Source: Hymenobacter metallilatus
GTDB lineage: Bacteria > Bacteroidota > Bacteroidia > Cytophagales > Hymenobacteraceae
Length of the DNA stretch: 32,000 nucleotides
NCBI RefSeq assembly: GCF_003944705.1
Contig: NZ_RWIS01000002.1
Coordinates: forward strand, 462,243-494,242
Direction of reading: 5' to 3'
Part shown: positions 4,239 to 30,475 of the stretch, one piece after another
Position numbering within the stretch: the stretch's first letter is position 1
How the letters are laid out: each line of letters opens with the position of its first letter
Notes under the pieces: generated by a model
Told to the model about the DNA's origin: nothing
The model's database searches: none
What the model saw: only the letters and a program-made list of their open reading frames with translations
Translations under genes and position numbers: made by a program

Positions 4239-4353
4239 AGAACGTCATGCTGAGCTTGCCGAAGCATCTCTACCGCTTCGTGCTCAAGAGTGAGTTAGCA
4301 AGAGTGAGTTAGCCAGAGGTAGAGATGCTTCGGCAAGCTCAGCATGACGTTCT
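4239..4353. repeat. complete V1 nested-palindrome element (36-nt arms, 43-nt spacer)
   Basis: Left arm 4239-4274 is agaacgtcatgctgagcttgccgaagcatctctacc. Right arm 4318-4353 is its exact reverse complement. The spacer holds a tandem 14-mer, aagagtgagttagc x2, at 4286-4313. Confidence 0.9.
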
Positions 4354-4375
4354 TTTTCCCATAACATCAGCACGC

Positions 4376-4407
4376 GAGATGCTTCGGCAAGCTGAGCATG
4401 ACGTTCT
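4376..4407. repeat. solo V1 right arm
   Basis: gagatgcttcggcaagctgagcatgacgttct has one mismatch to the consensus right arm. It lies 19 nt upstream of the argG ATG. Confidence 0.85.
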
Positions 4408-4425
4408 CATAATCTTCAGCACTCC

Positions 4426-5616
4426 ATGAAAAAAAAGGTAGTTCTCGCCTATAGCGGCGGCTTGGATACGTCTTATTGCGTGGTGTACCTAACCCGCGAG
4501 CTGGGTCTGGAAGTCCACACGGTGATTGTCAACTCGGGCGGCTTCTCGCCAGAGGAACTGGCCGGTATCGAAAAGCGTGCCTACGAAATGGGCTCCACGC
4601 GCCACGAGGTGATTGACGTAACCGAGCGGTTCTACCAGCAGTGCCTGCGCTACCTGCTGGCCGGCAACGTGCTCAAAAACGACACTTACCCGTTGAGCGT
4701 GAGTGCCGAGCGGATGTTTCAGAGCCTGGCGCTGGCCGAGTACGCCCGCGAGAACAAGGCCGACTACATTGCCCACGGCAGCACCGGTGCCGGCAACGAC
4801 CAAGTGCGCTTCGACGTGGCCTTCTCGGTGATTTCGCCCGACACCGAAATCATCACGCCCATCCGCGACCTAGGCCTTTCGCGCCAGCAGGAAATTGAGT
4901 ATTTGCAAGCCAACGGCGTGGAGATGAGCTGGGAAAAAGCCAAATACTCTATCAACAAGGGTATCTGGGGCACCAGCGTGGGCGGCGTGGAAACCCTCAC
5001 CTCCCGCCAGGGCCTGCCCGAGTCGGCCTGGCCGACTCAGCTCAGCAAGCACGAGCCCCAGGAAATCAGCATCACCTTTGAGAAAGGCGAGCCGGTGGCT
5101 TTAAACGGCGAAGCAATGAAGCCGGTGGACCTGATTGTGGCTCTCAACGAGCTGGCCGGCCAGTACGCCATCGGCCGCGACACCCACGTGGGCGACACGA
5201 TTCTGGGCATCAAGGGCCGGGTGGGCTTCGAGGCCCCCGCGCCGCTGATTCTCATCAAAGGCCACCACTTGCTGGAAAAGCACACGTCCAGCCGCTGGCA
5301 GCTGCTGCACAAGGACTACATCGCCAACTGGTACGGCACGCTGCTGCACGAGGCCCAGTACCTCGACCCGGTGATGCGCGACATGGAAGCCTTCCTGGAA
5401 TCGTCGCAGGAGCGGGTGTCGGGCACGGTGTACGTGACGTTGAAGCCGTATCAGTTCGAGCTGCTGGGTGTGGAGTCGCCGTTTGATATGATGCAGTCGA
5501 AGGTGGCTACCTACGGCGAGGAAAACAACGCTTGGGACTCGCGCGACGCGAAAGGCTTCATCAAAATCTTCAGCAACCAGCTGCGGATTCACGGCTCGTT
5601 CAACGATGAAAATTAA
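4426..5616 (+). CDS. argG: argininosuccinate synthase
   Basis: 396 aa, beginning MKKKVVLAYSGGLDTS (N-type ATP pyrophosphatase motif), with HGSTGAGNDQVRF. Confidence 0.95.
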   Translation: MKKKVVLAYSGGLDTSYCVVYLTRELGLEVHTVIVNSGGFSPEELAGIEKRAYEMGSTRHEVIDVTERFYQQCLRYLLAGNVLKNDTYPLSVSAERMFQSLALAEYARENKADYIAHGSTGAGNDQVRFDVAFSVISPDTEIITPIRDLGLSRQQEIEYLQANGVEMSWEKAKYSINKGIWGTSVGGVETLTSRQGLPESAWPTQLSKHEPQEISITFEKGEPVALNGEAMKPVDLIVALNELAGQYAIGRDTHVGDTILGIKGRVGFEAPAPLILIKGHHLLEKHTSSRWQLLHKDYIANWYGTLLHEAQYLDPVMRDMEAFLESSQERVSGTVYVTLKPYQFELLGVESPFDMMQSKVATYGEENNAWDSRDAKGFIKIFSNQLRIHGSFNDEN

Positions 5617-6586
5617 GGCTGGCATCGTCGGCGGGGCCGGCTACACGGCGGGGGAGCTGCTGCGGATTCTGCTGCACCACGAGTTTGTGGAGCTGGGCGG
5701 CATCGTGAGTTCCTCCAACGCTGGCAACCCCATCCACCAAGTGCACGACGATCTGGTGGGCGAGACGGAGCTGCGTTTCACGGCTGAGCTGCAGGGCGAC
5801 GAGGACGTGGTGTTTCTGTGCCTGGGCCACGGCAACTCCAAGGCCTGGCTGACCCAGCACCCGATGCCCGAAACTACCCACGTCATCGACCTGAGCAACG
5901 ACTTCCGCCTGGAAGCCGACGCCGAGTTTGCGGGCCGGGAGTTTGTGTACGGGCTGCCGGAGCTGAACAAAAGCCAAATCCAGCAGGCCCAGAGCATTGC
6001 CAACCCCGGCTGCTTCGCCACGGCCATTCAGCTGGCGCTGCTGCCGCTGGCCCAGGCCGGCAAGCTCCAGAACGACGTGCACGTATCGGCCATTACGGGC
6101 AGCACGGGCGCGGGGCAGAGCCTCTCGGAAACGGTGCATTTCTCGTGGCGCACCAACAACGTGTCCATCTACAAGCCCTTCACGCACCAGCATCTGGGCG
6201 AGATAGGGGAGAGCCTGGCGCAGCTGCAGCACGCGCTGGACGTAGATATCCACTTCATCCCGTACCGCGGCAACTTCACCCGGGGCATCTTCGCCAGCGT
6301 CTACACGCCGTCGGATTTGACCCAGGACGAGGCCCGCGCGCTGTACCAGCAGTTCTACCAGGACGCCCCGTTTACCACGGTATCGGACAAGGAAGTACAT
6401 CTGAAGCAGGTTGTTAATACCAACAAGTGCCTGCTGCACGTGCAGAAACTCGGCAAGCAGTTGCTCATCACCTCGGTTATCGATAACCTGGTGAAAGGTG
6501 CTTCCGGCCAAGCCGTGCAGAACATGAACCTCATCTTCGCCCTGCCCGAAACGACGGGGCTAGGGTTGAAGGCCGGGCTGTTTTAG
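5606..6586 (+). CDS. argC: N-acyl-gamma-glutamyl-phosphate reductase
   Basis: 326 aa, with GIVGGAGYTAGELLRIL (NAD-binding) and the active-site segment ANPGCFAT. Overlaps the argG stop by 11 nt. Confidence 0.95.
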   Translation: MKIKAGIVGGAGYTAGELLRILLHHEFVELGGIVSSSNAGNPIHQVHDDLVGETELRFTAELQGDEDVVFLCLGHGNSKAWLTQHPMPETTHVIDLSNDFRLEADAEFAGREFVYGLPELNKSQIQQAQSIANPGCFATAIQLALLPLAQAGKLQNDVHVSAITGSTGAGQSLSETVHFSWRTNNVSIYKPFTHQHLGEIGESLAQLQHALDVDIHFIPYRGNFTRGIFASVYTPSDLTQDEARALYQQFYQDAPFTTVSDKEVHLKQVVNTNKCLLHVQKLGKQLLITSVIDNLVKGASGQAVQNMNLIFALPETTGLGLKAGLF

Positions 6587-6588
6587 GC

Positions 6589-6686
6589 AGAGCGTCATGC
6601 TGAGCTTGCCGAAGCATCTCTACCGCTTCGCAAGACCATTGATTACCCTCGGTAGAGATGCTTCGGCAAGCTCAGCATGACGTTCT
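6589..6686. repeat. complete V1 nested-palindrome element (36-nt arms, 26-nt spacer)
   Basis: Left arm 6589-6624 has one a>g change. Right arm 6651-6686 matches consensus. The element starts 3 nt after the argC stop. Confidence 0.9.
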
Positions 6687-6746
6687 GTTAGGATGTTCTG
6701 TAGGCTTGCTTCTAATTTCTAACCTCTCAGCTCTCACATCTATACC

Positions 6747-7886
6747 ATGGAGCTTTTCAACGTGTATCCGCTCGTCAACATCACGCCCGTGAAGGCGCTG
6801 GGGGCGAAACTCTGGGACGACAAAGGCCAGGAGTACCTGGATTTTTACGGCGGGCACGCCGTTATCAGCATCGGCCACAGCCACCCGCACTACGTGCAGC
6901 GCCTCACCGAGCAACTCGGCAACATCGGCTTCTACTCCAACTCGGTGCAGATTCCGATTCAACGGGAGCTGGCCGAGAAGCTGGGCCGGGTATCGGGCTA
7001 CGAGGATTACACGCTGTTTCTGTGCAACTCCGGGGCCGAGGCCAACGAGAATGCGCTGAAGCTGGCTTCCTTCCACACCGGGAAGAAGCGCGTCATAGCA
7101 TTCCGGGGCGCGTTCCACGGCCGCACCTCGGGCGCGGTAGCCGCCACCGACAACCCCAAAATCGTGGCGCCCTTCAACGCCGACCACCACATCAGCTTCC
7201 TGGAGTACGATCTGGCGGCGGTGGAGCAGGTGCTGCAGGGCGGCGACGTGTGCGGGGTCATCATCGAGCCCATCCAGGGCGTGGGCGGTATCATCATGCC
7301 TTCTGATGAATTCCTGCAAGGCTTGGCTGCGCTGACCAAACAATATGGCGCGCTGCTGCTGGCCGATGAGGTGCAGAGCGGTTACGGCCGCAGCGGCAGG
7401 TTCTTCGCCCACCAGCACGCCGGTATCCGGCCCGACGTTATTTCGGTGGCCAAGGGCATGGGCAACGGCTTCCCCATCGGCGGCATCCTGATTGCGCCCG
7501 AGCTGAAGGCGTCCTACGGGTTGCTGGGTACCACGTTTGGCGGCAACCACTTGGCCTGCGCTGCCGCGCTGGCCGTGCTGGAAGTTATTGAGCAGGAAAA
7601 CCTGGTGCAGCACGCCGCCGAGCTGGGCGACTACCTGCGCACGGAGTTGGAAGCCCACGCCGGGGCCGAGGAAATCCGGGGCCGGGGCCTGATGGTGGGC
7701 ATCAAGTACGATTTCCCCATCAAGGACCTGCGCGACCAGCTGCTCTCGGAGCACCACATCTTCGTGGGCAACGCCTCCGACCCCACGGTGCTGCGCCTGC
7801 TGCCCCCGCTGAATATCACCAAGGCCGAGGTAGACCGGTTTTTGCAGGCGCTGTACGCATTAATTCCGGCCGAAGTGAAAAAGTAA
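6747..7886 (+). CDS. argD: acyl-ornithine aminotransferase (class-III PLP aminotransferase)
   Basis: 379 aa, with NSGAEANE, ADEVQSGYGRSG and SVAKGMGNGFP (PLP lysine region). Confidence 0.9.
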   Translation: MELFNVYPLVNITPVKALGAKLWDDKGQEYLDFYGGHAVISIGHSHPHYVQRLTEQLGNIGFYSNSVQIPIQRELAEKLGRVSGYEDYTLFLCNSGAEANENALKLASFHTGKKRVIAFRGAFHGRTSGAVAATDNPKIVAPFNADHHISFLEYDLAAVEQVLQGGDVCGVIIEPIQGVGGIIMPSDEFLQGLAALTKQYGALLLADEVQSGYGRSGRFFAHQHAGIRPDVISVAKGMGNGFPIGGILIAPELKASYGLLGTTFGGNHLACAAALAVLEVIEQENLVQHAAELGDYLRTELEAHAGAEEIRGRGLMVGIKYDFPIKDLRDQLLSEHHIFVGNASDPTVLRLLPPLNITKAEVDRFLQALYALIPAEVKK

Positions 7887-8211
7887 ACGACCTGTGGCCT
7901 AACTTGCAGCCCCAATGAGTAGCACCCTGAAGCTCCCGAGCCCCGCTCCCCTTCTGACAAGCTGCCCGCTGCCATTGGTGACTCCTGCGCAGCAACCGGC
8001 CAGTTCTTTCCACGAAAGAACAGCCTCCCCCTTTTCCTTCCAGCAGTTGTGCCCGCCCGACTTCCCGATGCCTGACATCTGGAAGTGGCAGGGTGCGGGA
8101 CCGATTGATTTAGTTTCTTTCTCTCCCGTTTGGCTTACCTCCTTGTTCGGCTGGAATAGACCCCCGGTATTCGGTTCTGTTCCAGCCGAAATTGTATCCG
8201 GGCGGTTCCGA

Positions 8212-8313
8212 CCCCCGGCCCCTCCCCTCCGGGAGAGGGGTGCGTGCCAACAAACAACGACCTCGTTACTGCTGTCTGGCTCCCCCTCTCCCGGAGGGGA
8301 GGGGGCCGGGGGG
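8212..8313. repeat. GC-rich nested inverted repeat in the carA upstream gap
   Basis: Left arm 8212-8240 is cccccggcccctcccctccgggagagggg. Right arm 8282-8313 is ccccctctcccggaggggagggggccgggggg. The arms are near-perfect complements. Each contains a 6-bp mini-hairpin, cccctc-N5-gagggg. Confidence 0.8.
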
Positions 8314-8367
8314 TGGGGTCCACGCAGAAAATCAATCATCAGAGTAAACCCTTTTTCGCATAACAGA

Positions 8368-9453
8368 GTGGAAAACGCTAAATCGGTAAAACTCGTCCTC
8401 GAAGACGGTACTGAAATCCAGGGCCAGTCGTTCGGCGCCTTCACCTCCGCCGCGGGCGAGGTGGTATTCAGCACGGCCATGACCGGCTACCCCGAAAACC
8501 TCACCGATCCGTCCTTCGCCGGGCAGATTCTGGTGCTGACTTACCCCATCGTGGGCAACTACGGCGTGCCGGGCGAGGAGCTGTACGAGTCGATTTCCAA
8601 GATTTTCGAGTCGGACAAGATTCACATTGCCGGCCTGGTAGTCAACTACTACTCCGAGGAGCACAGCCACTGGAACGCCGCCAAAAGCCTGGGCGACTGG
8701 CTGGCCGAGTACAACATCCCCGGCATCTGCGGCGTGGACACGCGCATGCTCACCAAGAAGCTGCGCGAGAAGGGCGCCATGCTCGGCAAGATTGTGGCCG
8801 AGCAGGACGTGCCCCTGCACGACCCCAACCTGGAAAACCTGGTGGCCCAGGTGAGCCCCCAGGGCGTGCAGCACTACGGCACGGGCCAGCACAAAATAGT
8901 GCTGGTAGACTGCGGCACCAAAACCAACATCATCCGCTGCTTCCTGGAGCGCGACGTGGAGCTGATCCGGGTGCCCTGGGACTACGACTTCACCCAGCTC
9001 GACTACGACGGCCTGTTCCTGAGCAACGGCCCCGGCGACCCGAAAATGTGCGTGCCCACCATCGAGCACCTGCAAAAGGCGCTGGAGCAGGACAAGCCCA
9101 TCTTCGGCATCTGCCTGGGTTCCCAGCTCATGGGCCTGGCCGCCGGCGGCGACACGTTCAAGCTCAAGTACGGGCACCGCAGCCACAACCAGCCCGTCAA
9201 GCTCACCGGCACCCAGCGCAGCTACATCACCAGCCAGAACCACGGCTTCGCGGTGGACACGGCCACGCTGCCCGCCGAGTGGGACATGCTGTTCGAAAAC
9301 CTCAACGACGGCACCTGCGAAGGCATCAAGCACAAAACCAAGCCCTTCTTCTCCACCCAGTTCCACCCCGAAGCCGCCGGCGGCCCCCAGGACACGGAGT
9401 TTCTGTTTGATGATTTCTTGAAAGCGGTGGTGGAGTATAAAGCCTCGAAGTAA
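8368..9453 (+). CDS. carA: carbamoyl-phosphate synthase small (glutaminase) subunit
   Basis: CarA similarity starts at ...ENAKSVKLVLEDGTEIQGQSFGA. I place the start at the in-frame GTG at 8368 (361 aa). The GATase triad region GICLGSQL is present. The 151 upstream in-frame codots of the track ORF (7915-8367) are Pro/Ser-rich and run through a repeat. Confidence 0.85.
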   Translation: MENAKSVKLVLEDGTEIQGQSFGAFTSAAGEVVFSTAMTGYPENLTDPSFAGQILVLTYPIVGNYGVPGEELYESISKIFESDKIHIAGLVVNYYSEEHSHWNAAKSLGDWLAEYNIPGICGVDTRMLTKKLREKGAMLGKIVAEQDVPLHDPNLENLVAQVSPQGVQHYGTGQHKIVLVDCGTKTNIIRCFLERDVELIRVPWDYDFTQLDYDGLFLSNGPGDPKMCVPTIEHLQKALEQDKPIFGICLGSQLMGLAAGGDTFKLKYGHRSHNQPVKLTGTQRSYITSQNHGFAVDTATLPAEWDMLFENLNDGTCEGIKHKTKPFFSTQFHPEAAGGPQDTEFLFDDFLKAVVEYKASK

Positions 9454-9455
9454 TC

Positions 9456-9821
9456 ATGAGTACTTGCAAGTTTCGCTTACTCATACCTACGCTAGCGCTG
9501 ATATTTTTGAATGCTGGCTGTAGGCAAGAAGCAAAATTTGATAAGGACAAGTGGTGCTCTATGGGTGATATAGGAAGCTTCCCGTATCGTGAGCAAATGG
9601 TCGATGATTTGGTTACGCATCATCAACTTAAGGGTCTCACTTACCATCAGCTTCTTGATTCACTGGGTGAGCCGTCAAACTATGGCGAGTCTGACGGCAC
9701 ACTTCGGTATCTAATCATGGAGGATTTTGAATCAGATATTGACCCGGTACATGGCAAAACGCTTGACCTGACATTGGGGCTTGATTCTGTTGTAACTGCT
9801 TACAAAGTCACCAAGTGGTAA
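9456..9821 (+). CDS. low-GC small lipoprotein-like protein (possibly a BamE/SmpA_OmlA-like fold)
   Basis: 121 aa. The ATG is 2 nt after the carA stop. Signal peptide ends ...LIFLNAGC. A 60-nt sample I hand-counted is about 40% G+C, against about 60% in carB. Confidence 0.6.
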   Translation: MSTCKFRLLIPTLALIFLNAGCRQEAKFDKDKWCSMGDIGSFPYREQMVDDLVTHHQLKGLTYHQLLDSLGEPSNYGESDGTLRYLIMEDFESDIDPVHGKTLDLTLGLDSVVTAYKVTKW

Positions 9822-9828
9822 GCACCCC

Positions 9829-9874
9829 AGAACGTCATGCTAAGTTTGCCGAATCATCTCTACCATTTCGTTGG
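9829..9874. repeat. degenerate V1 left arm (half of a split palindrome)
   Basis: agaacgtcatgctAagTttgccgaaTcatctctaccAtttcgttgg. All four differences from consensus are G/C to A/T. Its partner is at 10291-10335. Confidence 0.85.
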
Positions 9875-9915
9875 CGAATAAGATTGTAATACTCAAACGT
9901 ACTAGTATACATACC

Positions 9916-10305
9916 ATGCAGTTGAATGGAAAATCATTAAAGAAATGGCTTTTGCTTTTAGTGGCAGGTATAGCCTTTTATTTCTCTTTTGATTTCCTAG
10001 ACGACTTCTTAGATAAGCAGATGTTGGGTGACCACCCAGAAGTCATTCTTGCGGCCAAGTATGGTGCCAAGACTTCTCCGAGAATACTTAGCCACACGGG
10101 AGAAATATTTTCTGAGGAATACAAAATGAATACGCTGGATTCCAAGCAAGACTCGCTTGAACTTGATATCAAGTTAGAAGGCAAGAAGGCAACCGCCATT
10201 ATTAATACGCGTGCAGTGAAGCAAGTATCTGGTATATGGAACATCTACCGTAGCGACACCACATTCACTGAACAGGCACCACAGCTTGGCCCAACGAAGC
10301 GGTAG
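9916..10305 (+). CDS. low-GC hypothetical membrane-anchored protein
   Basis: The track ORF starts at a TTG at 9871, inside the repeat. The first ATG, at 9916 (MQLNGKSLKKWLLLLVAGIAFYFSF...), gives 129 aa with one N-terminal TM helix. The TAG stop lies within the V1 right arm (ggTAGag). No family recognised. Confidence 0.5.
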   Translation: MQLNGKSLKKWLLLLVAGIAFYFSFDFLDDFLDKQMLGDHPEVILAAKYGAKTSPRILSHTGEIFSEEYKMNTLDSKQDSLELDIKLEGKKATAIINTRAVKQVSGIWNIYRSDTTFTEQAPQLGPTKR

Positions 10306-10335
10306 AGATGCTTCGGCAAGCTCAGCATGACGTTC
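10291..10335. repeat. V1 right arm (half of a split palindrome)
   Basis: ccaacgaagcggtagagatgcttcggcaagctcagcatgacgttc. Consensus sequence, complementary to 9829-9874 except at the four degenerate positions. Confidence 0.9.
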
Positions 10336-10379
10336 AGATAAATCCTTTGCCTACGTTCTTTTTGAACATAACCCCCAGA

Positions 10380-13631: not shown

Positions 13632-13646
13632 TCAGCGGAGTTCATA

Positions 13647-13691
13647 AGAACGTCATGCTGAGCTTGTCGAAGCATCTCTACCGCTTCGTTG
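13647..13691. repeat. V1 left arm carrying a private T variant (outer half of a split palindrome)
   Basis: agaacgtcatgctgagcttgTcgaagcatctctaccgcttcgttg. Its exact partner is at 14644-14684. Confidence 0.9.
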
Positions 13692-13720
13692 TTCGGCATC
13701 GGCGCTGATTGGACAAAGCA

Positions 13721-13823
13721 AGAACGTCATGCTGAGCGAAGCTGAAGCATCTCTACTGATAGTAACTCCTCTCGTGAGGACGACCCCGGTAGAGATGCTT
13801 CAACAAGCTCAGCATGACGTTCT
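13721..13823. repeat. complete variant V1 element nested inside the split palindrome
   Basis: The left arm, 13721-13756, has loop variant gagcGAAGCtga, which contains GCGAAGC at 13736-13742. The right arm, 13788-13823, is ggtagagatgcttcaacaagctcagcatgacgttct. The arms pair except at the mini-loop. Confidence 0.85.
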
Positions 13824-13854
13824 GATTTTCGGCTGTTCTGCGTAACGTAGCCGC

Positions 13855-14145
13855 ATGTACGTCTACATCCTGACTAACCCGACCCAAACTGTGCTCTACA
13901 TCGGCGTCACCAACGACTTGGCCCGCCGCCTCTATGAGCACAGCCAGGGCCGCGGTGACGCGGGCAAGTTCACCGGACGGTACCAAGCGGATTTGCTGGT
14001 GTACTTCGAGCAGTGCCCGGATGCTACGCAGGCTATTGCGCGGGAAAAGCAACTGAAAGGCTGGACGCGGCAGAAGAAGGACGCGCTGATTGCGGCGTTT
14101 AATCCGACGTGGCAGGCTATTGATTTGCAGACGTGGGCGGGGTAA
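13855..14145 (+). CDS. small stand-alone GIY-YIG (URI-domain) nuclease family protein
   Basis: 96 aa: MYVYILTNPTQTVLYIGVTNDLARRLYEH...REKQLKGW. The YILTN...LYIGVTN...R..EH...E pattern is typical of short COG2827-type GIY-YIG proteins. G+C is host-like. Confidence 0.85.
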   Translation: MYVYILTNPTQTVLYIGVTNDLARRLYEHSQGRGDAGKFTGRYQADLLVYFEQCPDATQAIAREKQLKGWTRQKKDALIAAFNPTWQAIDLQTWAG

Positions 14146-14156
14146 ACTAAATACTT

Positions 14157-14642
14157 ATGAATAAGCTATCTGAGCTAAATGACCTTTGGAAAAAGGCAAA
14201 GATTAGAACAGTTGACACTGCAACTGAACAGCAGGTTAGTGAGTTTGAAGCAACTCATAATCTGATTATTCCTCATGATTTACGAGGTTATTTCGTAGCT
14301 GTGAACGGTACCGACAGGTTGCCGGATAATGAGTTTTATACTTTCTGTACGCTTGAGCAATTTCAACCAATCACCAAAGTTTTAGATGCTTGGAAAAACG
14401 GTATACCGAGGCATAGCGACGTGCTTGAGAAAATAGGCAGCCCTCAAAATTGCTTTGTATTTGCGGATTATAGCATCTACCTCTTTGCTTACGCTATCAG
14501 GCTGTACCCTACAGAATCTGCTCAAAATGAAGTTTATGCAATCTGCGGTGGAGAATACAGAATTATAGCCAAGTCGTTTTCCGAATTCATCGACCTGTAT
14601 CTGCAGCAGGCGGATGAACTTACCTTTTGTCTCATCGCCTGA
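14157..14642 (+). CDS. SMI1/KNR4 (SUKH-1 superfamily) protein, immunity-protein-like, low GC
   Basis: 161 aa. The N-terminal segment (...QVSEFEATHNLIIPHDLRGYFVAVNG) and the ...FADY...SFSEFIDLYL segments resemble the SUKH pattern. A 60-nt sample I hand-counted is about 35% G+C. Confidence 0.65.
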   Translation: MNKLSELNDLWKKAKIRTVDTATEQQVSEFEATHNLIIPHDLRGYFVAVNGTDRLPDNEFYTFCTLEQFQPITKVLDAWKNGIPRHSDVLEKIGSPQNCFVFADYSIYLFAYAIRLYPTESAQNEVYAICGGEYRIIAKSFSEFIDLYLQQADELTFCLIA

Positions 14643-14643
14643 G

Positions 14644-14684
14644 CAACGAAGCGGTAGAGATGCTTCGACAAGCTCAGCATGACG
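14644..14684. repeat. V1 right arm carrying the matching private A variant (outer half of a split palindrome)
   Basis: caacgaagcggtagagatgcttcgAcaagctcagcatgacg is the exact reverse complement of 13651-13691. The terminal ttct reappears at 14710-14713 after a 25-nt insertion. Confidence 0.9.
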
Positions 14685-14733
14685 GCCTGACGGCCTTTTC
14701 CGTCTGCCGTTCTGAAATACCGTAGAACACCCC

Positions 14734-18327: not shown

Positions 18328-18454
18328 GAATGTGGCGTAAGCTTTAGCTTGCGCCGTACACCGGCCGTAAAAGGGGCAGCATCACCGCGCTCTGCCGATT
18401 TTTACGCCCGGTTCTCGTTTATGCACGGCGCAAGCTAAAGCTTACGCCACATTC
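18328..18454. repeat. perfect 30-bp inverted repeat filling the EamA/rarA divergent intergenic region
   Basis: gaatgtggcgtaagctttagcttgcgccgt (18328-18357) and acggcgcaagctaaagcttacgccacattc (18425-18454). Each arm lies 7 nt from a start codon and contains an internal palindrome, gcgtaagct-tt-agcttgcgc. Confidence 0.9.
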
Positions 18455-19800: not shown

Positions 19801-20042
19801 AGGGTATGAGGGTGTGGGGGTGTGGGGGTGTGGGGGTAGGAGTTATTAGCCCGTCATTCCGAGCTTGCCGAGGAATCTCGCGTGCTGACGTTGCACTGGT
19901 GACTGTTACGCAGAATGCAGCGGAGCGGAGTGATGCATCTCGCGTGCAGTGCTGATCCACCTCATTGCAACATTAGCCCGTCATTCCTCGGCAAGCTCGG
20001 AATGACGGGCTAATAACTCCTACCCCCGCACCCTCATACCCT
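19801..20042. repeat. composite V2 nested-palindrome element with octamer expansion
   Basis: The left arm, 19801-19876, includes aggagttattagcccgtcattccgagcttgccgaggaat. The right arm, 19983-20042, is its reverse complement and extends to acccccgcaccctcataccct. The left arm has extra gtgtgggg units at 19810-19836. Confidence 0.9.
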
Positions 20043-20112
20043 AAACTCCCGCCTGTTCCACCCCCAAACCGGGCTGTTGGTTGAATACCCAGTTGGAGGC
20101 GCGAAAAGCGGC

Positions 20113-21904: not shown

Positions 21905-21996
21905 GTGTTTGGTTGTCAGTAGCTGGTTATCAGTAATCAGATACAATAGTTGCTGCCTGCTACGTAGCAGCAAACAATTTTGTAGAACACCTCTTG

Positions 21997-22038
21997 GTCT
22001 GTCATCCGGAGCACTGCTCCGGATGACAGACTTTTTTT
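21997..22038 (+). terminator. strong rho-independent terminator after sppA
   Basis: gtctgtcatccggagc-act-gctccggatgacagac followed by 7 T. Confidence 0.85.
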
Positions 22039-22982: not shown

Positions 22983-23447
22983 CTATTTGCGTGCCGGCCC
23001 GAAACTGTACATTTCCGGCTGGTTGTGTTTGGCGGGGTGCCCGTACACGAGCTTGGCGGTGGTTACACTCTCTACGGTATATTCCTGGGCGGTGCCTTTA
23101 TGGTCGGTGAGGTGCAGGGTGCGGTTGTCGGTGCCCATCAGCATCCAGGTGCCGCGGTAGGTAGTACCATCGGCCAGCAGGGTCTGCACATAAGTGCCGT
23201 CGGGTTTAAACTGCATACTGTACCGGTCCTTGATGGCCTCGGCGCTGGTGAGTTGCCCGCCGCTGCTTACCTCGTTCAGCCACCAGACGGTAACGCTGGT
23301 AAAAGCAGCCGTGGTAACTGGCTCCCGGGGAGGCGGGGTGCAGCCGCAGGTAGATTTTTCGCAGCTGGTTGTGCCTGCCGCACCCAGGGCCAGCAAGGCG
23401 CTGCAAGCCAGCAGGCGGGCAAAGCGAAGAGTAGCAGGTATAGGCAT
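22983..23447 (-). CDS. lipocalin-like-domain lipoprotein, paralog 1
   Basis: 154 aa with a signal peptide, SCEKSTCGC, then W.LNEV...IKDRYSMQFKPDGTYVQTLLADGTTYRGTW. Closely similar to the next ORF. Confidence 0.7.
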   Translation of the reverse strand: MPIPATLRFARLLACSALLALGAAGTTSCEKSTCGCTPPPREPVTTAAFTSVTVWWLNEVSSGGQLTSAEAIKDRYSMQFKPDGTYVQTLLADGTTYRGTWMLMGTDNRTLHLTDHKGTAQEYTVESVTTAKLVYGHPAKHNQPEMYSFGPARK

Positions 23448-23456: not shown

Positions 23457-23894
23457 CTATAATACGCTGGTGAAGCGCCGCTCCTCCGTCTCGCCACTTT
23501 TGTTCACCCAGGCATAGCGGAGCTCCTGGTTCGAAACGCGCCCTACGGTGTAGTCCTGGGCGGCGCCTTTGTGGTCAACCAGGTTCAGCAGCATGTTGCT
23601 TTCCTCCAGCTTCCAGGTGCCATTGTAGGTGGTGCCGTCGGCCAGCAGGGTTTGCACATAGGTGCCATCGGCCCTGAGCTGGATGGTATACCGGTCTTTA
23701 ATGGTGCTGCCGCTGCCGGCCAGCTGGTTATTGAGGTATACCTCATCAAGCCGCCACTTCTGGGCCATTTGAGCCATTACTACCGATGGTACCGGTACCG
23801 GGTCGCAGCCGCAGGATGTATTGTCGCAGCTGCCCACCATGAAGAAGGTGGAGAAAAATACGGCAAAAAGAATAAGCGGGCGTTTTATACGCAT
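23457..23894 (-). CDS. lipocalin-like-domain lipoprotein, paralog 2
   Basis: 145 aa with a signal peptide, GSCDNTSCGC, then W.LDEV...IKDRYTIQLRADGTYVQTLLADGTTYNGTW. Confidence 0.7.
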   Translation of the reverse strand: MRIKRPLILFAVFFSTFFMVGSCDNTSCGCDPVPVPSVVMAQMAQKWRLDEVYLNNQLAGSGSTIKDRYTIQLRADGTYVQTLLADGTTYNGTWKLEESNMLLNLVDHKGAAQDYTVGRVSNQELRYAWVNKSGETEERRFTSVL

Positions 23895-23960
23895 GATTGG
23901 GTGGTAAGGAAGATAAGAAAGAAGTGACGGGTAAATGTATGCCGGAAAGCCGCGCAGCTT

Positions 23961-24404: not shown

Positions 24405-24464
24405 AAGCAGTATATGGTAGTTTCCTCTGCAGGAGCCCATCCGGGCCCCGAGGGTTGCACGCCG

Positions 24465-25316
24465 CTATTTCACAATTACCATGCGCCGCTGGTAGCTCAG
24501 AACGGTAAATACGCCCACGCCACCCTCCACGGTGCTCTTAATGGCTGAAGGCTGCCCGAAAGGATTACCGTTGGCATTGCGCGCATCCTGTACCGACTGC
24601 AGAAACCGGAAGTACGGTTGGTCCAGGTGGTAGAGCGTAACGAAAATCGTGTCGTTGGGAGCAAACTCGTAGCTGGTGCCCAGGCTGTATTCGGCACCAT
24701 TGTTAAGGCGGTCCTCTACGGTGTACTCCACTTCCGGGTCGCGGGAAATACTGTCCCGGTGAATCTGCAGGCGGTAGTAGTCGGTAGTAGGAGCCGGGTC
24801 GCGGAAGCGGGTAAGTACGTAGGCCTTGCGAAACTCGCCCTGCTTGTCGTTGAACTTCCACTCCACCGTATCAATGGGCACCAGCGCGGGCATAGTGGCC
24901 TGGCCGGTTACCCGGCGGCCCTGAGTGTCCATCACCTCCAAGCGGAACGTTTGACCAGGGGTTGGCGAAATGCGGCGCTGCCCGATGTGGGTGTACACCT
25001 TGCCGGTTACATTATCAATGCCCGGATCGAAGCGGAGTTCCTGGCGCTGCCCGTTGGGCAGGGTCAGGTAGGCTTTTACATCGGTGGGGACCTGGGGGTT
25101 GGGCGAAGAAAGATAAGGTGCCGATTCCGACACGGCAATGCGCGGAATCTGCCCACTTTCCAGGTAGGCCTCCACCACCAGCTGAGGCGGGTAGTCGGGC
25201 AGCACCACGTCGATATCCTGCTGCAGGCCGCAGCTGCTCAGCAACCAAAGGGCCAGCAAACCAGGCAAGGACCCGAAAACCGCATTCGAAATCCGCGTAA
25301 TCAGAGAAGACTGCAT
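24465..25316 (-). CDS. DUF4249-like lipoprotein, the usual partner of this TonB-receptor type
   Basis: 283 aa with lipobox LLSSCG. Immediately downstream of the TonB-dependent receptor, an arrangement common in Bacteroidota. The family assignment is from memory of this gene pairing, not from alignment. Confidence 0.6.
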   Translation of the reverse strand: MQSSLITRISNAVFGSLPGLLALWLLSSCGLQQDIDVVLPDYPPQLVVEAYLESGQIPRIAVSESAPYLSSPNPQVPTDVKAYLTLPNGQRQELRFDPGIDNVTGKVYTHIGQRRISPTPGQTFRLEVMDTQGRRVTGQATMPALVPIDTVEWKFNDKQGEFRKAYVLTRFRDPAPTTDYYRLQIHRDSISRDPEVEYTVEDRLNNGAEYSLGTSYEFAPNDTIFVTLYHLDQPYFRFLQSVQDARNANGNPFGQPSAIKSTVEGGVGVFTVLSYQRRMVIVK

Positions 25317-25325
25317 ATTCCGCGC

Positions 25326-27686: not shown

Positions 27687-27805
27687 GAGCCCCAAAGTAC
27701 GGACACGCACCGCAAACGACCGAATGAGCCGGCCGCAGGAGTAGAGGTTGCACGCTACCGGCCCACCGGGCGGATTTTTATTTCCGGCCCGCGGTACGGC
27801 GGGTT

Positions 27806-28114
27806 TCAGCGCAGTACGCCCTGCACCACCTGGCTGATGTGGGCGGCGGATACTACGCCGGCCTGCCGCCACACCGGCTGCCCCTGCTGAAACAAAATGA
27901 GGGTGGGAATGCTCTGCACCCGAAACTGCTGGGCCACGGCCTGGTTGCGGTCCACATCTATCTTGATGACTTTGAGCTTGCCCTGGTGCTGGTTGGCTAC
28001 CTGCTCCAGAATGGGCGCCATGGTTTTGCAGGGGCCGCACCAGTCGGCATAAAAATCTACCAGCACGGGCATCCCTGGGCTGTTGATCAACTCGGAAAAG
28101 GACTTTTTGGGCAT
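27806..28114 (-). CDS. trxA: thioredoxin
   Basis: 102 aa with the WCGPCK active site. Confidence 0.9.
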   Translation of the reverse strand: MPKKSFSELINSPGMPVLVDFYADWCGPCKTMAPILEQVANQHQGKLKVIKIDVDRNQAVAQQFRVQSIPTLILFQQGQPVWRQAGVVSAAHISQVVQGVLR

Positions 28115-28213
28115 ACAGCTGCTACCTATATCCGCCGCCCCGTGCGGCCGGAGTACCCGTTATACGGTAGTTAGGTGGGAACGATAAGCGGCCCAAACGG
28201 GCAGTTAGGCCAC

Positions 28214-28242
28214 AAAAAAAGCCCAGTGCTGCAACACTGGGC
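28214..28242 (-). terminator. rho-independent terminator for the 28276-28716 gene
   Basis: On the minus strand, gcccagtg-ttgcag-cactgggc is followed by a run of 7 T (the plus-strand A-run at 28214-28220). Confidence 0.7.
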
Positions 28243-28275
28243 TTCTGGGTGTGGGTGAGTGTGGGTGAAGAGGAG

Positions 28276-28716
28276 TTAATTCTTGCCCACCAAGGTAACA
28301 TCATTTGCGACTTCAGAAAAACCGAAGCGGCCACCAACCACTTTTTTTCCGCCTACCTGGCACTCCCAGGTGTAACGGCCCGGCTGGGCCCGGCCCGCTT
28401 CGCCCCGCTCGGTTTTGAAGTATTCGGCTTCTGTGGCTTCCGAAGGGAAAATCACGTCGATGCCGTTCTGGCCTTTGGGTACCTGCTTTACAAGCACGTA
28501 TTCTTTGCCGGTTTCCTGGTTAATAACTACAAATTTGGCGGTATAGCCGCCGAGTTGGCCAAACTTATCCATTACCCCAATCTTCACGTAGGCATCCGTA
28601 GACACCAGCCAGGTTTGGGCCTTGGCTTGAGTGGGCGAGAAAACTACCAGCGCCAACAAGAAGCCGATGGTTTGCAGGAAGCGGCGGAGGGGGAGAGCAG
28701 GAGTAGAAACGCGCAT
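28276..28716 (-). CDS. hypothetical secreted protein
   Basis: ATG at 28716 (MRVSTPALPLRRFLQTIGFLLALVVFSPTQAKAQ...), 146 aa with a signal peptide. No family recognised. Confidence 0.55.
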   Translation of the reverse strand: MRVSTPALPLRRFLQTIGFLLALVVFSPTQAKAQTWLVSTDAYVKIGVMDKFGQLGGYTAKFVVINQETGKEYVLVKQVPKGQNGIDVIFPSEATEAEYFKTERGEAGRAQPGRYTWECQVGGKKVVGGRFGFSEVANDVTLVGKN

Positions 28717-28935
28717 ACGAGAGACGATAAAGGTGAAACGCCGACTTTTAAACAAAAACAAAAGAAGAGAAGAACACCAGTTGATTGCCCACTTCGCCTG
28801 ATCATACAACTGAGGTGCAATCAAATATAAATGATATCCGACAACTCCAACAAAATTTTGTGCCGCTTTTGGAAAAATTCAGGCCTGATTGTCAAACCAG
28901 TAGCATGAGGCTCCCCGTAAGTAGCTGCTTGCCCG

Positions 28936-29256
28936 ATGCGAAAGAAGCGAATTGAGTGGCCGGCGGCCCCCGCGCCCGGTGCCGGCGGGCCCCATTGCGG
29001 TTTGTGTGAGCGAGCTGTGCAGCAAACTTCCCGCCACCACCTAGTGCCCCGGGAGGAAGGTGGCCGCCATGGCCCCACCGTGGAGCTGTGTCAGCCTTGC
29101 CATAGTACTATTCATCTGCTGCTGAGCAACCGGCAGCTAGCCCGGCAGTACAATACCGTGGAAAGTCTGCGCGAGGCCCAGGAGCTCCAAACCTATCTGC
29201 ACTGGGTGCGCCGTAGCCGGGTGGAGCGCATCAGCAACCGCCGGGCCCGGCGCTGA
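28936..29256 (+). CDS. small HNH-type endonuclease-like protein
   Basis: 106 aa: CGLC...RHHLVPREEGG...LCQPCHSTIH, i.e. two CxxC pairs flanking an HH motif. Confidence 0.65.
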   Translation: MRKKRIEWPAAPAPGAGGPHCGLCERAVQQTSRHHLVPREEGGRHGPTVELCQPCHSTIHLLLSNRQLARQYNTVESLREAQELQTYLHWVRRSRVERISNRRARR

Positions 29257-29316
29257 GGGACTGGTGCAGCCGACCGGGCTGCTACCTTTGGGCGGAGTTA
29301 ACTGATCTGACTTCCG

Positions 29317-30384
29317 GTGAAATACTTCGTGCCTTTCCGGCAGCTACGGCAGCAGCCGACTATTGTAGTGGATAGCACGGGCCTGGGAGCCAGCCTCACG
29401 CTGGCGCACTGGCGCGGGGCCGCCACGCCCGCACCCCTGCGCGACGACACCAGCGTCGGCTCGGTGCTGCGGGCCCTGCATCAGCCCCACACGCCTGGCC
29501 TGGAGGCCGAAGCCGTTACGGCCAACCACTTTGATATTGATGGGTTTGTGGGCATATGGGCACTGCTGAACCCCGAGCTGGCCCTGCACCATGAGCACCT
29601 GCTGCGCCTGGTGGCTACTCTCGGCGACTTCCGGGAAACTGACTGGCAGGACCCGCTGGCCGACCAGGCCCTGCAGCTGGTGTGCTGGCTGAATGCCGAG
29701 GAAAAAGCCCGGTTCTATGAGCCCTTCGGGGCCCCGGCCCGGCGCCGGCGCGAGGATGAGGCCTCGGCGGAAAAGTTCAACTGGTTTCTGCCCCGCTTTG
29801 CCGGGGTGCTGGAAAACCCTGAAAGCGGCCGCGCTGCCTGGGAGCCGGAGTACGCAAGGGTTCGGCAGGGAGTAGCCGCCATGCAGCACCCCGGCACCAC
29901 CGTGCGCCGTTACCCGGAAATCGGGCTGACGGTGGTCCGGACGCCGGAGCCGCTGCCCTATTACGCGCTGTTTGGGGCCACCGTCGGCACCGATATGGTG
30001 CTGAGCCTCTACAAGGGGCAGCGCTACGAGTTCGAGTACAAATACACCACCTGGATTGACCTGGAAAGCCGGCCCACCCTCCCGCGTCTGCCCCTGGATG
30101 CGCTTACGGCCCGCCTGAACGCCCTGGAAACTACCGCCCGGCGCTGGACCTTCGACGGCATCACCGATACTGGCCCTCTGCTGCGCCTGGGCGGCAAAAC
30201 CCTGAGCAAAGTGCAGCGCTACGCCGACCCCGACCAGCGCCCCATTCACGCATCCTCCATTCCACCCGCGCAGGTGGAGGAAGAAGTAGTGAAGTTTTTC
30301 CGGGCAGGCTACGTCGGCGTTGAGCCCCGCCGTTACTGGACCTGGGCCGAAATCCGGGCAGCCGGACAGCCCGAGCAGGCTTGA
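29317..30384 (+). CDS. hypothetical protein (355 aa), family not recognised
   Basis: GTG start 60 nt after the HNH gene. Composition looks coding, but I cannot assign a family. The segment NHFDIDGFVGIWALL is faintly DHH-like, which is very uncertain. Confidence 0.5.
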   Translation: MKYFVPFRQLRQQPTIVVDSTGLGASLTLAHWRGAATPAPLRDDTSVGSVLRALHQPHTPGLEAEAVTANHFDIDGFVGIWALLNPELALHHEHLLRLVATLGDFRETDWQDPLADQALQLVCWLNAEEKARFYEPFGAPARRRREDEASAEKFNWFLPRFAGVLENPESGRAAWEPEYARVRQGVAAMQHPGTTVRRYPEIGLTVVRTPEPLPYYALFGATVGTDMVLSLYKGQRYEFEYKYTTWIDLESRPTLPRLPLDALTARLNALETTARRWTFDGITDTGPLLRLGGKTLSKVQRYADPDQRPIHASSIPPAQVEEEVVKFFRAGYVGVEPRRYWTWAEIRAAGQPEQA

Positions 30385-30394
30385 GCTACCTGCA

Positions 30395-30475
30395 CTGTCA
30401 TTCCGAGCGAAGCGAGGAATCTGGGTTATACATCAGGAGTTAGACCCAGATTCCTCGCTTCGCTCGGAATGACAG
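30395..30475. repeat. V3 nested-palindrome element (perfect 32-bp arms, 17-nt loop) between convergent genes
   Basis: ctgtcattccgagcgaagcgaggaatctgggt (30395-30426) and acccagattcctcgcttcgctcggaatgacag (30444-30475). GCGAAGC lies at 30407-30413. Confidence 0.9.

Follow-up and report, generated by a model that had tools for sequence, protein, structure and literature searches.

Covarying hairpin repeats around an Ssn-like GIY-YIG nuclease gene in Hymenobacter metallilatus

Repeat arms and genes in the window

The window, a 32,000-nt stretch of Hymenobacter metallilatus DNA, contained 13 matches to GTCATNNNGAGCNNNNCGANNNATC with at most one mismatch, compared with 0.00 expected from 100 dinucleotide shuffles. 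These 13 arms fit GTCAT-N3-GAGC-N4-CGA-N3-ATC, and all window arms are intergenic, lying within or beside co-directional genes. Core positions are given on the strand reading GTCAT. Dimer E1 consists of a V1 arm on the plus strand at 4238–4281 (core 4244–4268), which reads CAGAA-CGTC-ATGCT-GAGCTTGCCGA-AGCAT-CTCTACCGCTTCGT, and a V1 arm on the minus strand at 4315–4355 (core 4324–4348). A solitary minus-strand arm at 4369–4405 (core 4378–4402, one mismatch) combines a V1 stem with a V2-type distal segment, CTCGCGTGCTGA. The 'empty' dimer E2 occupies the gap between argC and argD, with V1 arms at 6588–6631 (plus, core 6594–6618) and 6648–6688 (minus, core 6657–6681). The same site is empty in the related loci L045, L044 and L010, and in L056 it carries an Imm50 cassette.

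Just upstream of carB, a cargo cassette (9828–10337) is bounded on the left by a decayed plus-strand V1 arm, GTCATGCTAAGTTTGCCGAATCATC, at 9828–9874 (core 9834–9858), and on the right by a minus-strand V1 arm at 10291–10337 (core 10307–10331). Between them lies a low-GC plus-strand ORF at 9917–10305, encoding a predicted membrane protein of about 129 aa from the ATG at 9917. No Pfam family matched this product; a homologue of the ORF adjoins ssn in locus L005. Immediately past the carB stop codon there is a plus-strand V1 arm at 13644–13694 (core 13652–13676), followed by a plus-strand arm at 13720–13755 (core 13726–13751) with a V1 stem and a 12-nt apical part, GAGCGAAGCTGA, containing the GCGAAGC mini-hairpin. 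A minus-strand V1 arm at 13785–13828 (core 13794–13818) stands about 30 nt upstream of an ssn-like gene (13855–14145, plus strand), which encodes a 96-aa single-domain GIY-YIG nuclease (Pfam PF01541, E 2e-17), presumably the protein that recognises the V1 hairpin. This gene, the source of the hairpin's likely meaning, had been overlooked in the original prediction. Between it and the minus-strand V1 arm that closes the ssn cassette (14641–14690, core 14659–14683) lies a plus-strand cargo gene of the SMI1/KNR4 (SUKH) immunity type, assigned by Pfam (14157–14642, GC 0.50), which is missing at the corresponding position in L015 and L028. Such small low-GC cargo genes, often of toxin-immunity families, are enclosed by arm dimers at differing sites.

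The V2 and V3 arms lie further downstream. A plus-strand V2 arm, CGTC-ATTCC-GAGCTTGCCGA-GGAAT-CTCGCGTGCTGACG, is found at 19846–19892 (core 19853–19877), and a minus-strand compact V2 palindrome, GCCCGTCATTCC-N11-GGAATGACGGGC, at 19973–20012 (core 19982–20006); the latter has a CGTC head on both strands, and its post-stem base is G, not C. The V3 arms are at 30392–30430 (plus, core 30397–30421; TGTC-ATTCC-GAGCGAAGCGA-GGAAT-CTGGGT) and, as the right arm, at 30440–30478 (minus, core 30449–30473). All arm sequences quoted in the original prediction were found in the window; its V2 start and both its V3 ends were one base off (cgtc begins at 19852, and tgtc...ctg spans 30396–30423).

Stem covariation and folding of the arms

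The window together with 79 related Hymenobacter loci amounted to 1.42 Mb and yielded 418 arms. These follow the frame (A)GAA-CGTC / AT-xxx / GAG...CGA / x'x'x'-AT / C-T-C, in which the three x/x' pairs vary only with compensation and the GAG...CGA flanks never vary; the termini GTCAT...ATGAC are, as had been noted, common to every variant. Between V1 (ATGCT/AGCAT) and V2 or V3 (ATTCC/GGAAT) both sides of the stem changed, G-C to T-A and T-A to C-G, and the apical segment is the same in V1 and V2. Seven Watson–Crick stem types occur among the 418 arms, GCT/AGC being the commonest (236), followed by TCC/GGA (32), GCC/GGC (12), GTC/GAC (10), GTT/AAC (10), CCT/AGG (2) and ACT/AGT (1). Stem pairing is complete in 317 of the 418. 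The fifth pair of the proposed 5-bp stem is not universal, being A.A (GCA/AGC) in 76 arms. The base following the stem, which the search pattern left free, is C in 402 of 418 arms (96%).

Covariation was significant in an alignment of the 58 distinct cores. Paired cells made up 86.7%, compared with 78.4% after shuffling (a level reached in 0 of 500 shuffles), double-sided changes numbered 31 rather than 6.9, and the covariation score was 0.252 compared with 0.100 for shuffled cores and at most 0.111 for slid controls. Independent compensatory events are nevertheless few, at about 6–7 stem types, and arms of one type share ancestry. In 19 of 33 heterodimers both arms are internally paired, though their stems differ, and the apical sequence is common to both arms in only 70 of 165 dimers. 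Since different stems within one dimer are each self-paired, it is the intra-arm hairpin that is conserved and not the long inter-arm stem, which supports the proposal that selection maintains a local stem-loop in each arm regardless of inter-arm pairing. The stem is retained over loop lengths of 8–31 nt, with spacing classes of 11, 12, 22 and 24 nt.

The 11-nt segment previously described as a loop is itself structured: its GAG...CGA flanks are invariant and its inner pair covaries (G-C to A-T or C-G). Read inwards from the stem, a tandem G.A is succeeded by covarying G-C pairs and, at the tip, by a GNA or 5-nt loop. The sequence d(GCGAAGC), or GCGNAGC, forms a DNA mini-hairpin with a sheared G.A pair and a GNA triloop, reportedly the work of Hirao et al. 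GCGAAGC was found, as predicted, in V3 and in the arm with its core at 13726, and a tip of GCGAAGC, GCGCAGC, GCGTAGC or GCGGAGC in many related arms. Here, however, the mini-hairpin merely caps a longer hairpin, and V1 and V2 arms have GAGCTTGYCGA instead.

Folded as a free single strand, the whole dimer formed a single long hairpin, with energies between −43 and −50 kcal/mol and a z of about −14. The predicted long stem was thereby recovered; the four-way or cloverleaf fold predicted beside it falls far short of the long hairpin energetically. With standard DNA parameters, isolated arms were barely stable (only −2.5 to −4.3 kcal/mol, z about 0), and the minimum-energy folds of V1 and V2 were without the ATGCT/AGCAT stem, in a model that gives no credit to sheared G.A pairs or GNA loops. 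Each arm of the inverted repeats at 8212–8313 and 18328–18454 folds into its own hairpin, again as predicted.

The nuclease gene and related repeat systems

The ssn-like product shares 44% identity (E 1e-22) with the protein of the N. gonorrhoeae ssnA locus, where canonical NTS repeats, CGTCATTCCCGC...GCGGGAATC, form the flanks. Residues Y4, Y15 and E64 of the Hymenobacter protein align with Y6, Y17 and E64, which were mutated in SsnA. When flanking was defined as a right arm within 120 nt after the stop codon and a left arm within 600 nt upstream, 42 of the 57 loci had arms on both sides of the nuclease gene. The two bins adjoining the gene held 55 and 48 arms, compared with 0–7 (typically 2–4) per 500-nt bin elsewhere, and the minimal unit is arm, 25 nt, ORF, 10 nt, arm. 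Nuclease clade and stem type co-cluster (0 of 2000 permutations), each clade having its own stem type, a pattern also expected from plain co-inheritance. A second ssn copy is present in H. latericoloratus and H. glacieicola.

The closest parallel is the Ssn/SRM system (Neisseria NTS, CGTCATTCCCGCGMAVGCGGGAATCYRG; Chenal et al., Nat Commun 2025, PMC11893778). Shared with it are a single-domain GIY-YIG protein of about 95 aa, many intergenic copies, motifs on both sides of the nuclease gene, the CGTC head, the AT...AT stem frame and the C directly after the stem; the V3 tail GGAATCTGG also fits GGAATCYRG. The published motif has a 9-bp G+C stem, whereas the Hymenobacter hairpin has five Watson–Crick pairs, a tandem G.A, one or two further pairs and a loop of the GNA type or of 5 nt, and the published degenerate SRM search pattern matched 0 of 418 Hymenobacter arms. 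The Hymenobacter arms differ further in an extra 14-nt distal segment and REPIN-like dimers, in cargo genes inside the dimers, and in several stem types and paralogues per genus and within single genomes.

The CGTC-tagged REPs, which include Neisseria dRS3 and Rickettsia RPE-4/6, have Bacteroidetes among their listed hosts (Di Nocera et al., BMC Genomics 2013, PMC3733652). Like the arms, they carry an unpaired CGTC or TGTC tag, begin the stem with A-T and T-A pairs, form predominantly head-to-head dimers and may occur as several families in one genome. Their stems measure 8–9 bp and their loops 4–5 nt, their tail is CCA, and no dedicated enzyme was found for them (PMC3733652); the Hymenobacter tail is instead CTC, and its stem reaches 8–9 positions only with G.A pairs counted.

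Interpretation of the hairpins

The arms are most probably CGTC-headed hairpin repeats of the SRM/NTS kind, with the GIY-YIG gene at 13855–14145 encoding their cognate Ssn-family nuclease. It is unlikely that they act mainly as RNA hairpins, transcribed within an operon and serving in processing, stabilisation or termination, as proposed for classical REPs. Their intergenic position in or beside co-directional genes would suit such a role, and Rfam RF02901 (AaHKsRNA41, Aggregatibacter small RNA 41) aligns to the dimers (E 6e-15), its model positions 1–96 matching almost base for base (GCUGAgCUUGcCGAAGCAUcuaUauuGCuUCG). However, at 73 bits the score falls short of the gathering threshold (97), the model's 3' half is unmatched, and the family is annotated as a gammaproteobacterial sRNA gene. 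G.T intermediates between stem types were found, but there are about as many C.A intermediates, in which pairing is possible only on the opposite strand. An RNA role also leaves the systematic flanking of the nuclease gene and the clade-specific stems unexplained, and the homologous Neisseria protein does not bind RNA (PMC11893778). A secondary RNA role beside the nuclease system is possible.

Self-complementarity as an unselected by-product of copying or repair, for instance where a hairpin templates its own correction or a compact palindrome is duplicated, is very unlikely. Compact GTCATxxx-loop-xxxATGAC palindromes do exist (19973–20012), and the known stem types of independent origin are few. 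Against this, the GAG...CGA flanks, which never vary and are not complementary, and the fixed A.A of 76 arms show that the arm halves are not simply homogenised, head and tail are asymmetrically conserved, and stem mutations lower binding in the homologous SsnA system (PMC11893778).

Mobilisation by a RAYT, as for REP/REPIN elements (Bertels and Rainey 2011, PMC3116915), is hardly credible. The resemblance lies in two inverted short palindromic repeats that give a long hairpin when set head-to-head, in many non-autonomous copies beside one or a few repeat-flanked resident enzyme genes, in mostly vertical, syntenic inheritance, and in GGTAGAG beside the V1 palindrome, which recalls the REP head GTAG. 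That GTAG belongs to the V1 distal segment and is missing from V2 (CTCGCG) and V3 (CTGGGT); the head conserved here is CGTC, on the opposite side of the stem. The gene embedded between the arms encodes a GIY-YIG protein and not an HUH tyrosine transposase, no Y1 transposase domain was found among the window ORFs, and CGTC repeats are reported not to flank RAYT genes (PMC3733652). Equally improbable is the earlier suggestion that the ATGCT/AGCAT half-sites, as inverted repeats, form the operator of a dimeric duplex-binding protein without any hairpin, a reading that the original data alone could not separate from a stem-loop but that is disfavoured by the variable half-site spacing with complementarity retained, by the covarying inner pairs and by the asymmetric conserved flanks (GTC 5', C 3').

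On the Ssn/SRM reading, the arms are a divergent member of the CGTC-REP superfamily (Di Nocera 2013). The SsnA-type Neisseria protein binds its hairpin in single-stranded DNA alone, and there solely on the strand that reads CGTC; it cuts a few nucleotides to the 5' side of this head, and the C after the stem is reported as the most crucial base for binding (PMC11893778). By analogy, the Hymenobacter protein would be restricted in the same way to single-stranded DNA and to the CGTC-reading strand, and would cut at the corresponding place, here inside the conserved AGAA; all three properties are carried over from the 44%-identical homologue. Recognition may use both stem shape and stem sequence, in which case a stem could evolve only through paired substitutions and in step with its nuclease. 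The reader of the V2 and V3 stems would then be a second ssn paralogue encoded beyond the window. A head-to-head dimer would carry a cleavable motif on either strand, each at an outer edge of the element, an insertion-sequence-like geometry that fits the presence/absence states and cargo cassettes between species, with Ssn as the putative mover. The apical motif GAGCYTGYCGA also occurs with covarying stems in metagenome contigs of very different G+C, mostly without the CGTC head and with ssn nearby in only 2 of 120 contigs, so that another reader of the apical part, instead of or besides the nuclease, is possible.

The intra-arm covariation is real, yet it is largely explained by a known repeat-plus-nuclease system. 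What goes beyond the literature found is that stem types track nuclease clades and that cargo genes lie inside the dimers.

Covariation of the stem within each arm

The window comes from a chromosome of Hymenobacter type (Bacteroidota) and carries an arginine-biosynthesis cluster (argG, argC, argD, carA, carB and argF) followed by unrelated genes. Its hairpin repeat units, or arms, occur in three variants. The V1 arm reads (C)AGAA-CGTC-ATGCT-GAGCTTGCCGA-AGCAT-CTCTACCGCTTCGT on one strand, V2 has an ATTCC...GGAAT stem around the same middle (GAGCTTGCCGA), and V3 reads ATTCC-GAGCGAAGCGA-GGAAT. The original prediction gave these sequences, and reasoned from them that the changes in one half-stem are compensated in the other; on the window sequence both are correct, as are most of its coordinates, a few being off by one base. 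The pattern GTCATNNNGAGCNNNNCGANNNATC, with at most one mismatch, matches 13 times in the window versus 0.00 expected from shuffles, and every arm copy is intergenic. A longer inverted repeat (19803-19843 and 20010-20045) encloses the V2 element, with the G-rich tandem GGGGGTGT present three times on its left side and the complement CTACCCCCGCACCCTCATACCC on its right.

Covariation was measured on 79 loci fetched around relatives of ssn, the GIY-YIG gene at 13855-14145 (1.39 Mb, about 60 Hymenobacter species), using a scan pattern that placed no constraint on the three variable positions of either half-stem. Stems were fully paired in 317 of the 418 arms found, and seven Watson-Crick stem types were present (GCT/AGC, TCC/GGA, GCC/GGC, GTC/GAC, GTT/AAC, CCT/AGG and ACT/AGT), with wobble or mismatch intermediates that are single steps between types. 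In one abundant class, GCA/AGC (76 arms), the fifth position remains an A.A. The G.T intermediates are uninformative about which strand folds, since C.A intermediates are about equally common. A formal test was made on 58 distinct 25-nt cores, with 500 shuffles and with slid controls. Standard pairs in the named structure reached 86.7% (78.4% when shuffled), double-sided changes numbered 31 (6.9 when shuffled) and the covariation score was 0.252 (0.100 when shuffled). None of the 500 shuffles reached the observed covariation values, and the slid controls all fell far below them. Copies within one stem type share descent, so that the number of independent events is approximated by the number of types and not of copies. 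The pairs within the arm thus covary significantly in this larger sample, as had been proposed, and the covariation is real evidence for a selected DNA hairpin.

Pairing within an arm can be separated from pairing between arms in the 165 head-to-head dimers of the 79 loci. The stem triplets of the two arms differ in 33 dimers, and in 19 of these both arms are fully self-complementary (for example GTC/GAC beside GCT/AGC, or TCC/GGA beside GCC/GGC). The apical sequence is identical in both arms in only 70 of the 165. The long arm-to-arm duplex is therefore often broken exactly where the arms' own hairpins persist, which supports the idea that a local stem-loop is maintained apart from arm-to-arm pairing. 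The alternative first offered beside it, a site for a dimeric protein, is argued against by the distance between half-stems, which varies from about 8 to 31 nt among the related loci, with classes of 11, 12, 22 and 24 nt, and so does not suit a fixed-geometry site on duplex DNA.

Thermodynamic folding of single arms alone gives no support for the hairpin, the case for which rests on covariation and homology. The folding program assigned single arms only −2.5 to −4.3 kcal/mol, with z about 0, and did not choose the ATGCT/AGCAT stem in the minimum-energy fold of V1 and V2 single arms. The whole dimer, as a free strand, folded into one long hairpin of −43 to −50 kcal/mol. Of the two folds envisaged for the entire element, a long stem or a four-way junction, the first is thus obtained, while the four-way form is not competitive in free single-stranded DNA.

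The 11-nt segment originally taken as a loop is instead structured. It invariably starts with GAG and ends with CGA, although G9-A10 and G18-A19 were fixed by the search pattern in the 58-core alignment. The pair inside GAG...CGA covaries among the cores, with five changes from G-C to A-T and two from G-C to C-G. In the GCGNAGC class the next pair inward is C-G, or T-A/T.G. From these sequences the arm is best described as five Watson-Crick pairs, a putative tandem G.A/A.G, one or two further pairs, and either a GNA triloop (GAA, GCA, GTA or GGA) or a 5-nt loop (CTTGY). Tandem sheared G.A pairs and d(GCGNAGC) are stable, a stability not credited by the folding program.

The apical motif elsewhere and other repeats in the window

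A metagenome scan with the 20-mer TGCTGAGCTTGCCGAAGCAT preceded by a non-A base was aimed at an Aggregatibacter-type variant, and returned at least 120 contigs (L082-L201), a very broad set with the apical 20-mer in common. Among the matches listed, G+C ranged from 0.31 to 0.65 and the flanks were unrelated. These matches held 87 further N5-GAGCYTGYCGA-N5 modules with 50 stem types (for example in L097, L123 and L098), of which 44 were fully paired versus 8.5 expected; the CGTC head was absent from most copies, and an ssn homologue lay nearby in only 2 of the 120 contigs. An apical motif whose stem covaries freely thus occurs far more widely than arms with a CGTC head do. We found no description of a GAGCYTGYCGA motif with a covarying stem in the literature.

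Two unrelated inverted repeats of the window had been said to share the architecture of an arm with an inner hairpin, and both do. In the G+C-rich repeat at 8212-8313 (CCCCTCCCCTCCGGGAGAGGGG...), each arm folds on its own, at −19 and −24 kcal/mol with RNA parameters. This repeat represents a second dispersed hairpin family, present also in six of the related loci (L029, L037, L038, L039, L046 and L056). An ORF at 7915-9453 spans this repeat. Since homology to carA begins no earlier than about 8323-8386, the long ORF is probably an artefact. The repeat at 18328-18454, between divergent EamA and MgsA/RarA genes, has an inner hairpin of 9-10 bp in each arm (GGCGTAAGCT-TT-AGCTTGCGCC), and no other copy of it was found in the window or the 79 loci.

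Two further features were observed in the window. At 21995-22033, after an S49 peptidase gene, a terminator-like hairpin (GTCTGTCATCCGGAGCA-CTGCTCCGGATGACAGAC) is followed by a T run; it starts with TGTCAT, as arms do, which may be coincidence or may mark a derived arm copy. The adjacent minus-strand ORFs 22983-23447 and 23457-23894 share stretches of 74-77% identical DNA (direct repeats D6 and D18) and are probably a tandem gene duplication; one of them has a weak lipocalin-like match.

The ssn protein and known repeat families

The ORF at 13855-14145 encodes 96 aa comprising a bare GIY-YIG domain (Pfam PF01541 over residues 1-74, E 2e-17). The protein is 44% identical over 85 aa (E 1e-22) to a homologue of Neisseria gonorrhoeae at a locus flanked by NTS, the Neisseria repeat, and its conserved Y4, Y15 and E64 align with Y6, Y17 and E64, positions mutated in the Neisseria nuclease SsnA. 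The nearest solved structures are UPF0213 proteins, at E 1e-4 only, and searches of PDB and NCBIfam with the window protein gave no specific Ssn entry or model. A tblastn search of a plasmid collection reached a 2.17-Mb N. gonorrhoeae record, filed as a plasmid but evidently a chromosome, in which the sole match was a short ORF of GIY-YIG type with canonical NTS copies on its flanks. In the gonococcal ssnA-like ORF (L080, NZ_CP119142.1, 1195-1473), the ATG seems to stand one base off the reading frame of the remaining gene.

SsnA, of the Ssn nuclease family (cd10448), is a 94-aa GIY-YIG protein of Neisseria meningitidis described by Chenal et al. 2025 (PMC11893778). It binds the oriented hairpin repeat CGTCATTCCCGCGMAVGCGGGAATCYRG solely as single-stranded DNA, with no binding to duplex DNA, to RNA or to the reverse strand, and its cut falls a few nucleotides upstream (PMC11893778). 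The C after the palindrome is the base most critical for binding, while cleavage depends most on the three bases preceding the palindrome; the loop is dispensable, and activity is lost when the stem sequence is changed with the structure kept (PMC11893778). Thousands of Ssn homologues have flanking Ssn-related motifs, or SRMs (PMC11893778). Judged by its sequence, the window protein is a member of the Ssn family and a predicted nuclease, and the reader of the hairpin is likely encoded by ssn, a few kb away. Its mechanism, oriented cleavage at the hairpin specific for single-stranded DNA, would be that of the 44%-identical homologue.

The arms resemble SRM and NTS in being an oriented motif, with an HGTC head and an AT-started palindrome that forms a hairpin, and in having C directly after the stem in 402 of 418 arms, a base left free in the search. 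They differ in that none of the 418 matches the published SRM pattern, HGTCWYN(0-2)YYVSBRHN(0-5)WNVSBRGN(0-2)RNCYNB, which does match the canonical NTS used as a control. That degenerate pattern was a search device built from 29 genomes (PMC11893778) and not a functional definition. The arms are thus classed as SRM-like motifs of a divergent type outside the published pattern.

A second likeness is to the CGTC-tagged REPs defined by Di Nocera et al. 2013 (PMC3733652), which have an unpaired CGTC or TGTC tag and A-T and T-A as first stem pairs. These are mostly head-to-head dimers, occur in five phyla including Bacteroidetes, include the Neisseria dRS3, and according to the authors "apparently lack a dedicated transposase" (PMC3733652). 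Head-to-head dimers likewise predominate among the arms (165), position −1 of the arm is C in 77% and T in 13%, and A-T and T-A stand at columns 4-5 and 23-24 of the 58-core alignment, columns that the search pattern had fixed. CGTC-tagged REPs have an 8-9 bp stem, a 4-5 nt loop and a CCA tail, whereas the arms have a CTC tail and reach 8-9 stacked stem positions, with a loop of 3-5 nt, only if both G.A pairs are counted. The system is probably of a known type, CGTC-REP/SRM hairpin repeats with an Ssn-family single-strand nuclease, in which the new element is a divergent member.

Two other assignments were considered. A REP/REPIN-RAYT reading, prompted by GGTAGAG beside the stem, was rejected: GTAG is confined to the distal segment of V1 and is not conserved across variants, the gene flanked by arms is a GIY-YIG gene, and no Y1 (HUH) transposase domain was found in the window ORFs. 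The Rfam family RF02901 (AaHKsRNA41) matched at 4237-4405, 6587-6756 and 13645-13871 on both strands (E 6e-15 to 1e-8); its best score, 73.1 bits (E 5.9e-15), is below the gathering threshold of 97 bits. Even so, its alignment to arm dimers is nearly base for base, with a consensus hairpin that is almost the same as the V1 dimer. A gammaproteobacterial repeat of this kind may therefore be what the 'sRNA' family describes.

Nuclease clades, stem types and cargo cassettes

Arms are concentrated around ssn. In the related loci, 55 forward and 48 reverse arms lie in the two 500-nt bins adjoining the gene, compared with 0-7 (typically 2-4) per bin elsewhere, and 42 of 57 complete loci have both a reverse arm within 120 nt after the stop and a forward arm within 600 nt upstream. 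The simplest units (L050, L055 and L064) consist of an arm, 25 nt, the ORF, 10 nt and an arm. The window scan placed arms at 13644, 13720 and 13785 upstream of ssn and at 14641 downstream.

On a tree of 80 nuclease sequences the flanking stem types fall in blocks. One clade has GTC/GAC on every arm, others have GCC/GGC or GCA/AGC, two 103-aa proteins (the type in L066 and L078) have TCC/GGA arms mixed with GCA/AGC arms, and in the large clade to which the window ssn belongs the type is GCT/AGC, one subclade having GTT/AAC in its downstream arms. Protein identity is 82.3% between nucleases with the same downstream stem and 75.2% between those with different ones (0/2000 permutations). This association indicates linkage and not co-adaptation, because co-inheritance alone would produce it. 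Several genomes have two or three paralogues whose arms differ in stem type (H. latericoloratus, L008/L078; H. glacieicola, L058/L066; H. rubidus, L049/L065/L079). The ssn of the window is of V1 type only, and the V2 (19846-20012) and V3 (30392-30478) arms would belong with an ssn paralogue encoded outside the window. A homologue on a Spirosoma plasmid is flanked by another compensated arm, TGTC-ATCCC-GAGGAACGA-GGGAT-C.

The closest ssn relatives are in Hymenobacter species, the best being that of H. piscis (99% protein identity, with about 92% DNA identity across carB). The position of the gene varies: it occupies the carB/argF gap in the window, L001, L015, L028 and others, the carA/carB gap in L005, L012, L044 and others, and both gaps in L016, while a near-identical gene (93-94% protein identity) lies outside the arginine cluster in L004 and L006. 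The argC/argD gap has no element in L045, L044 and L010, an empty dimer in the window (6588-6687), and a dimer enclosing an Imm50-family gene in L056. This Imm50 cassette recurs, at about 80-85% DNA identity, in L001 and L007, each time at a different, unrelated site. Across the three sites, in three species, the homology starts at gaaCGTCATGCTGAG, ends at CTCAGCATGACG and is bounded by arms. Element ends and target-site duplications were not definable from the available empty sites, which are too diverged.

Dimers with spacers of 250-2500 nt number 57, 38 with ssn and 19 without; most of the latter contain a single small ORF. Mean spacer G+C is 0.47, compared with 0.59 for the loci overall. 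Dimers enclosing one small low-GC gene lie at 2423-2950 in L001, 9236-9837 in L007 and 6667-7226 in L056. The window itself has two cassettes, one at 9828-10337 (a decayed arm, a low-GC ORF and an arm) and one at 13644-14690 (arms, ssn, a SUKH gene at 14157-14642 and an arm). Across species, the position just upstream of ssn is taken by more than 12 apparently unrelated small ORFs, the cargo being hypervariable per site, and those ssn-adjacent cargo ORFs with Pfam matches are of toxin-immunity types (SUKH, Imm50, Barstar and DUF7668). Small low-GC cargo upstream or downstream of ssn was also seen in L025, L020 and L006.

This cassette pattern would result either from transposition that the nuclease carries out or from exchange in which the 45-nt arms recombine. 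We consider it possible, although rather unlikely, that the Hymenobacter dimers, besides being nuclease targets, are the ends of a miniature cassette system that takes up and relocates single small genes, with several orthogonal nuclease/hairpin pairs acting in parallel within one genome. Such pairs would be told apart by the compensated stem changes, and the cargo may be mostly orphan polymorphic-toxin immunity genes (SUKH, Imm50, Barstar and DUF7668). If this were true, and if the GIY-YIG nuclease drives relocation, it would be the first bacterial mobile-element family based on a GIY-YIG single-strand nuclease, and would supply the enzyme that the 2013 survey lacked for CGTC repeats (PMC3733652). 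Through such cargo cassettes, immunity genes may come to enter conserved operons.

These results place Hymenobacter (Bacteroidota), which the main text of PMC11893778 does not mention, within the Ssn/SRM system. As the published SRM pattern misses this whole class of motif, the reported fraction of motif-flanked ssn genes is probably an underestimate. The set of compensated stems (ATGCT, ATTCC, ATGCC, ATGTC, ATGTT, ATCCT and ATACT), together with the matching nuclease clades, forms a ready panel for asking by what rules a protein of 96 aa recognises a hairpin, and also for the paired enzyme/sequence toolkits proposed by the Ssn authors (PMC11893778).
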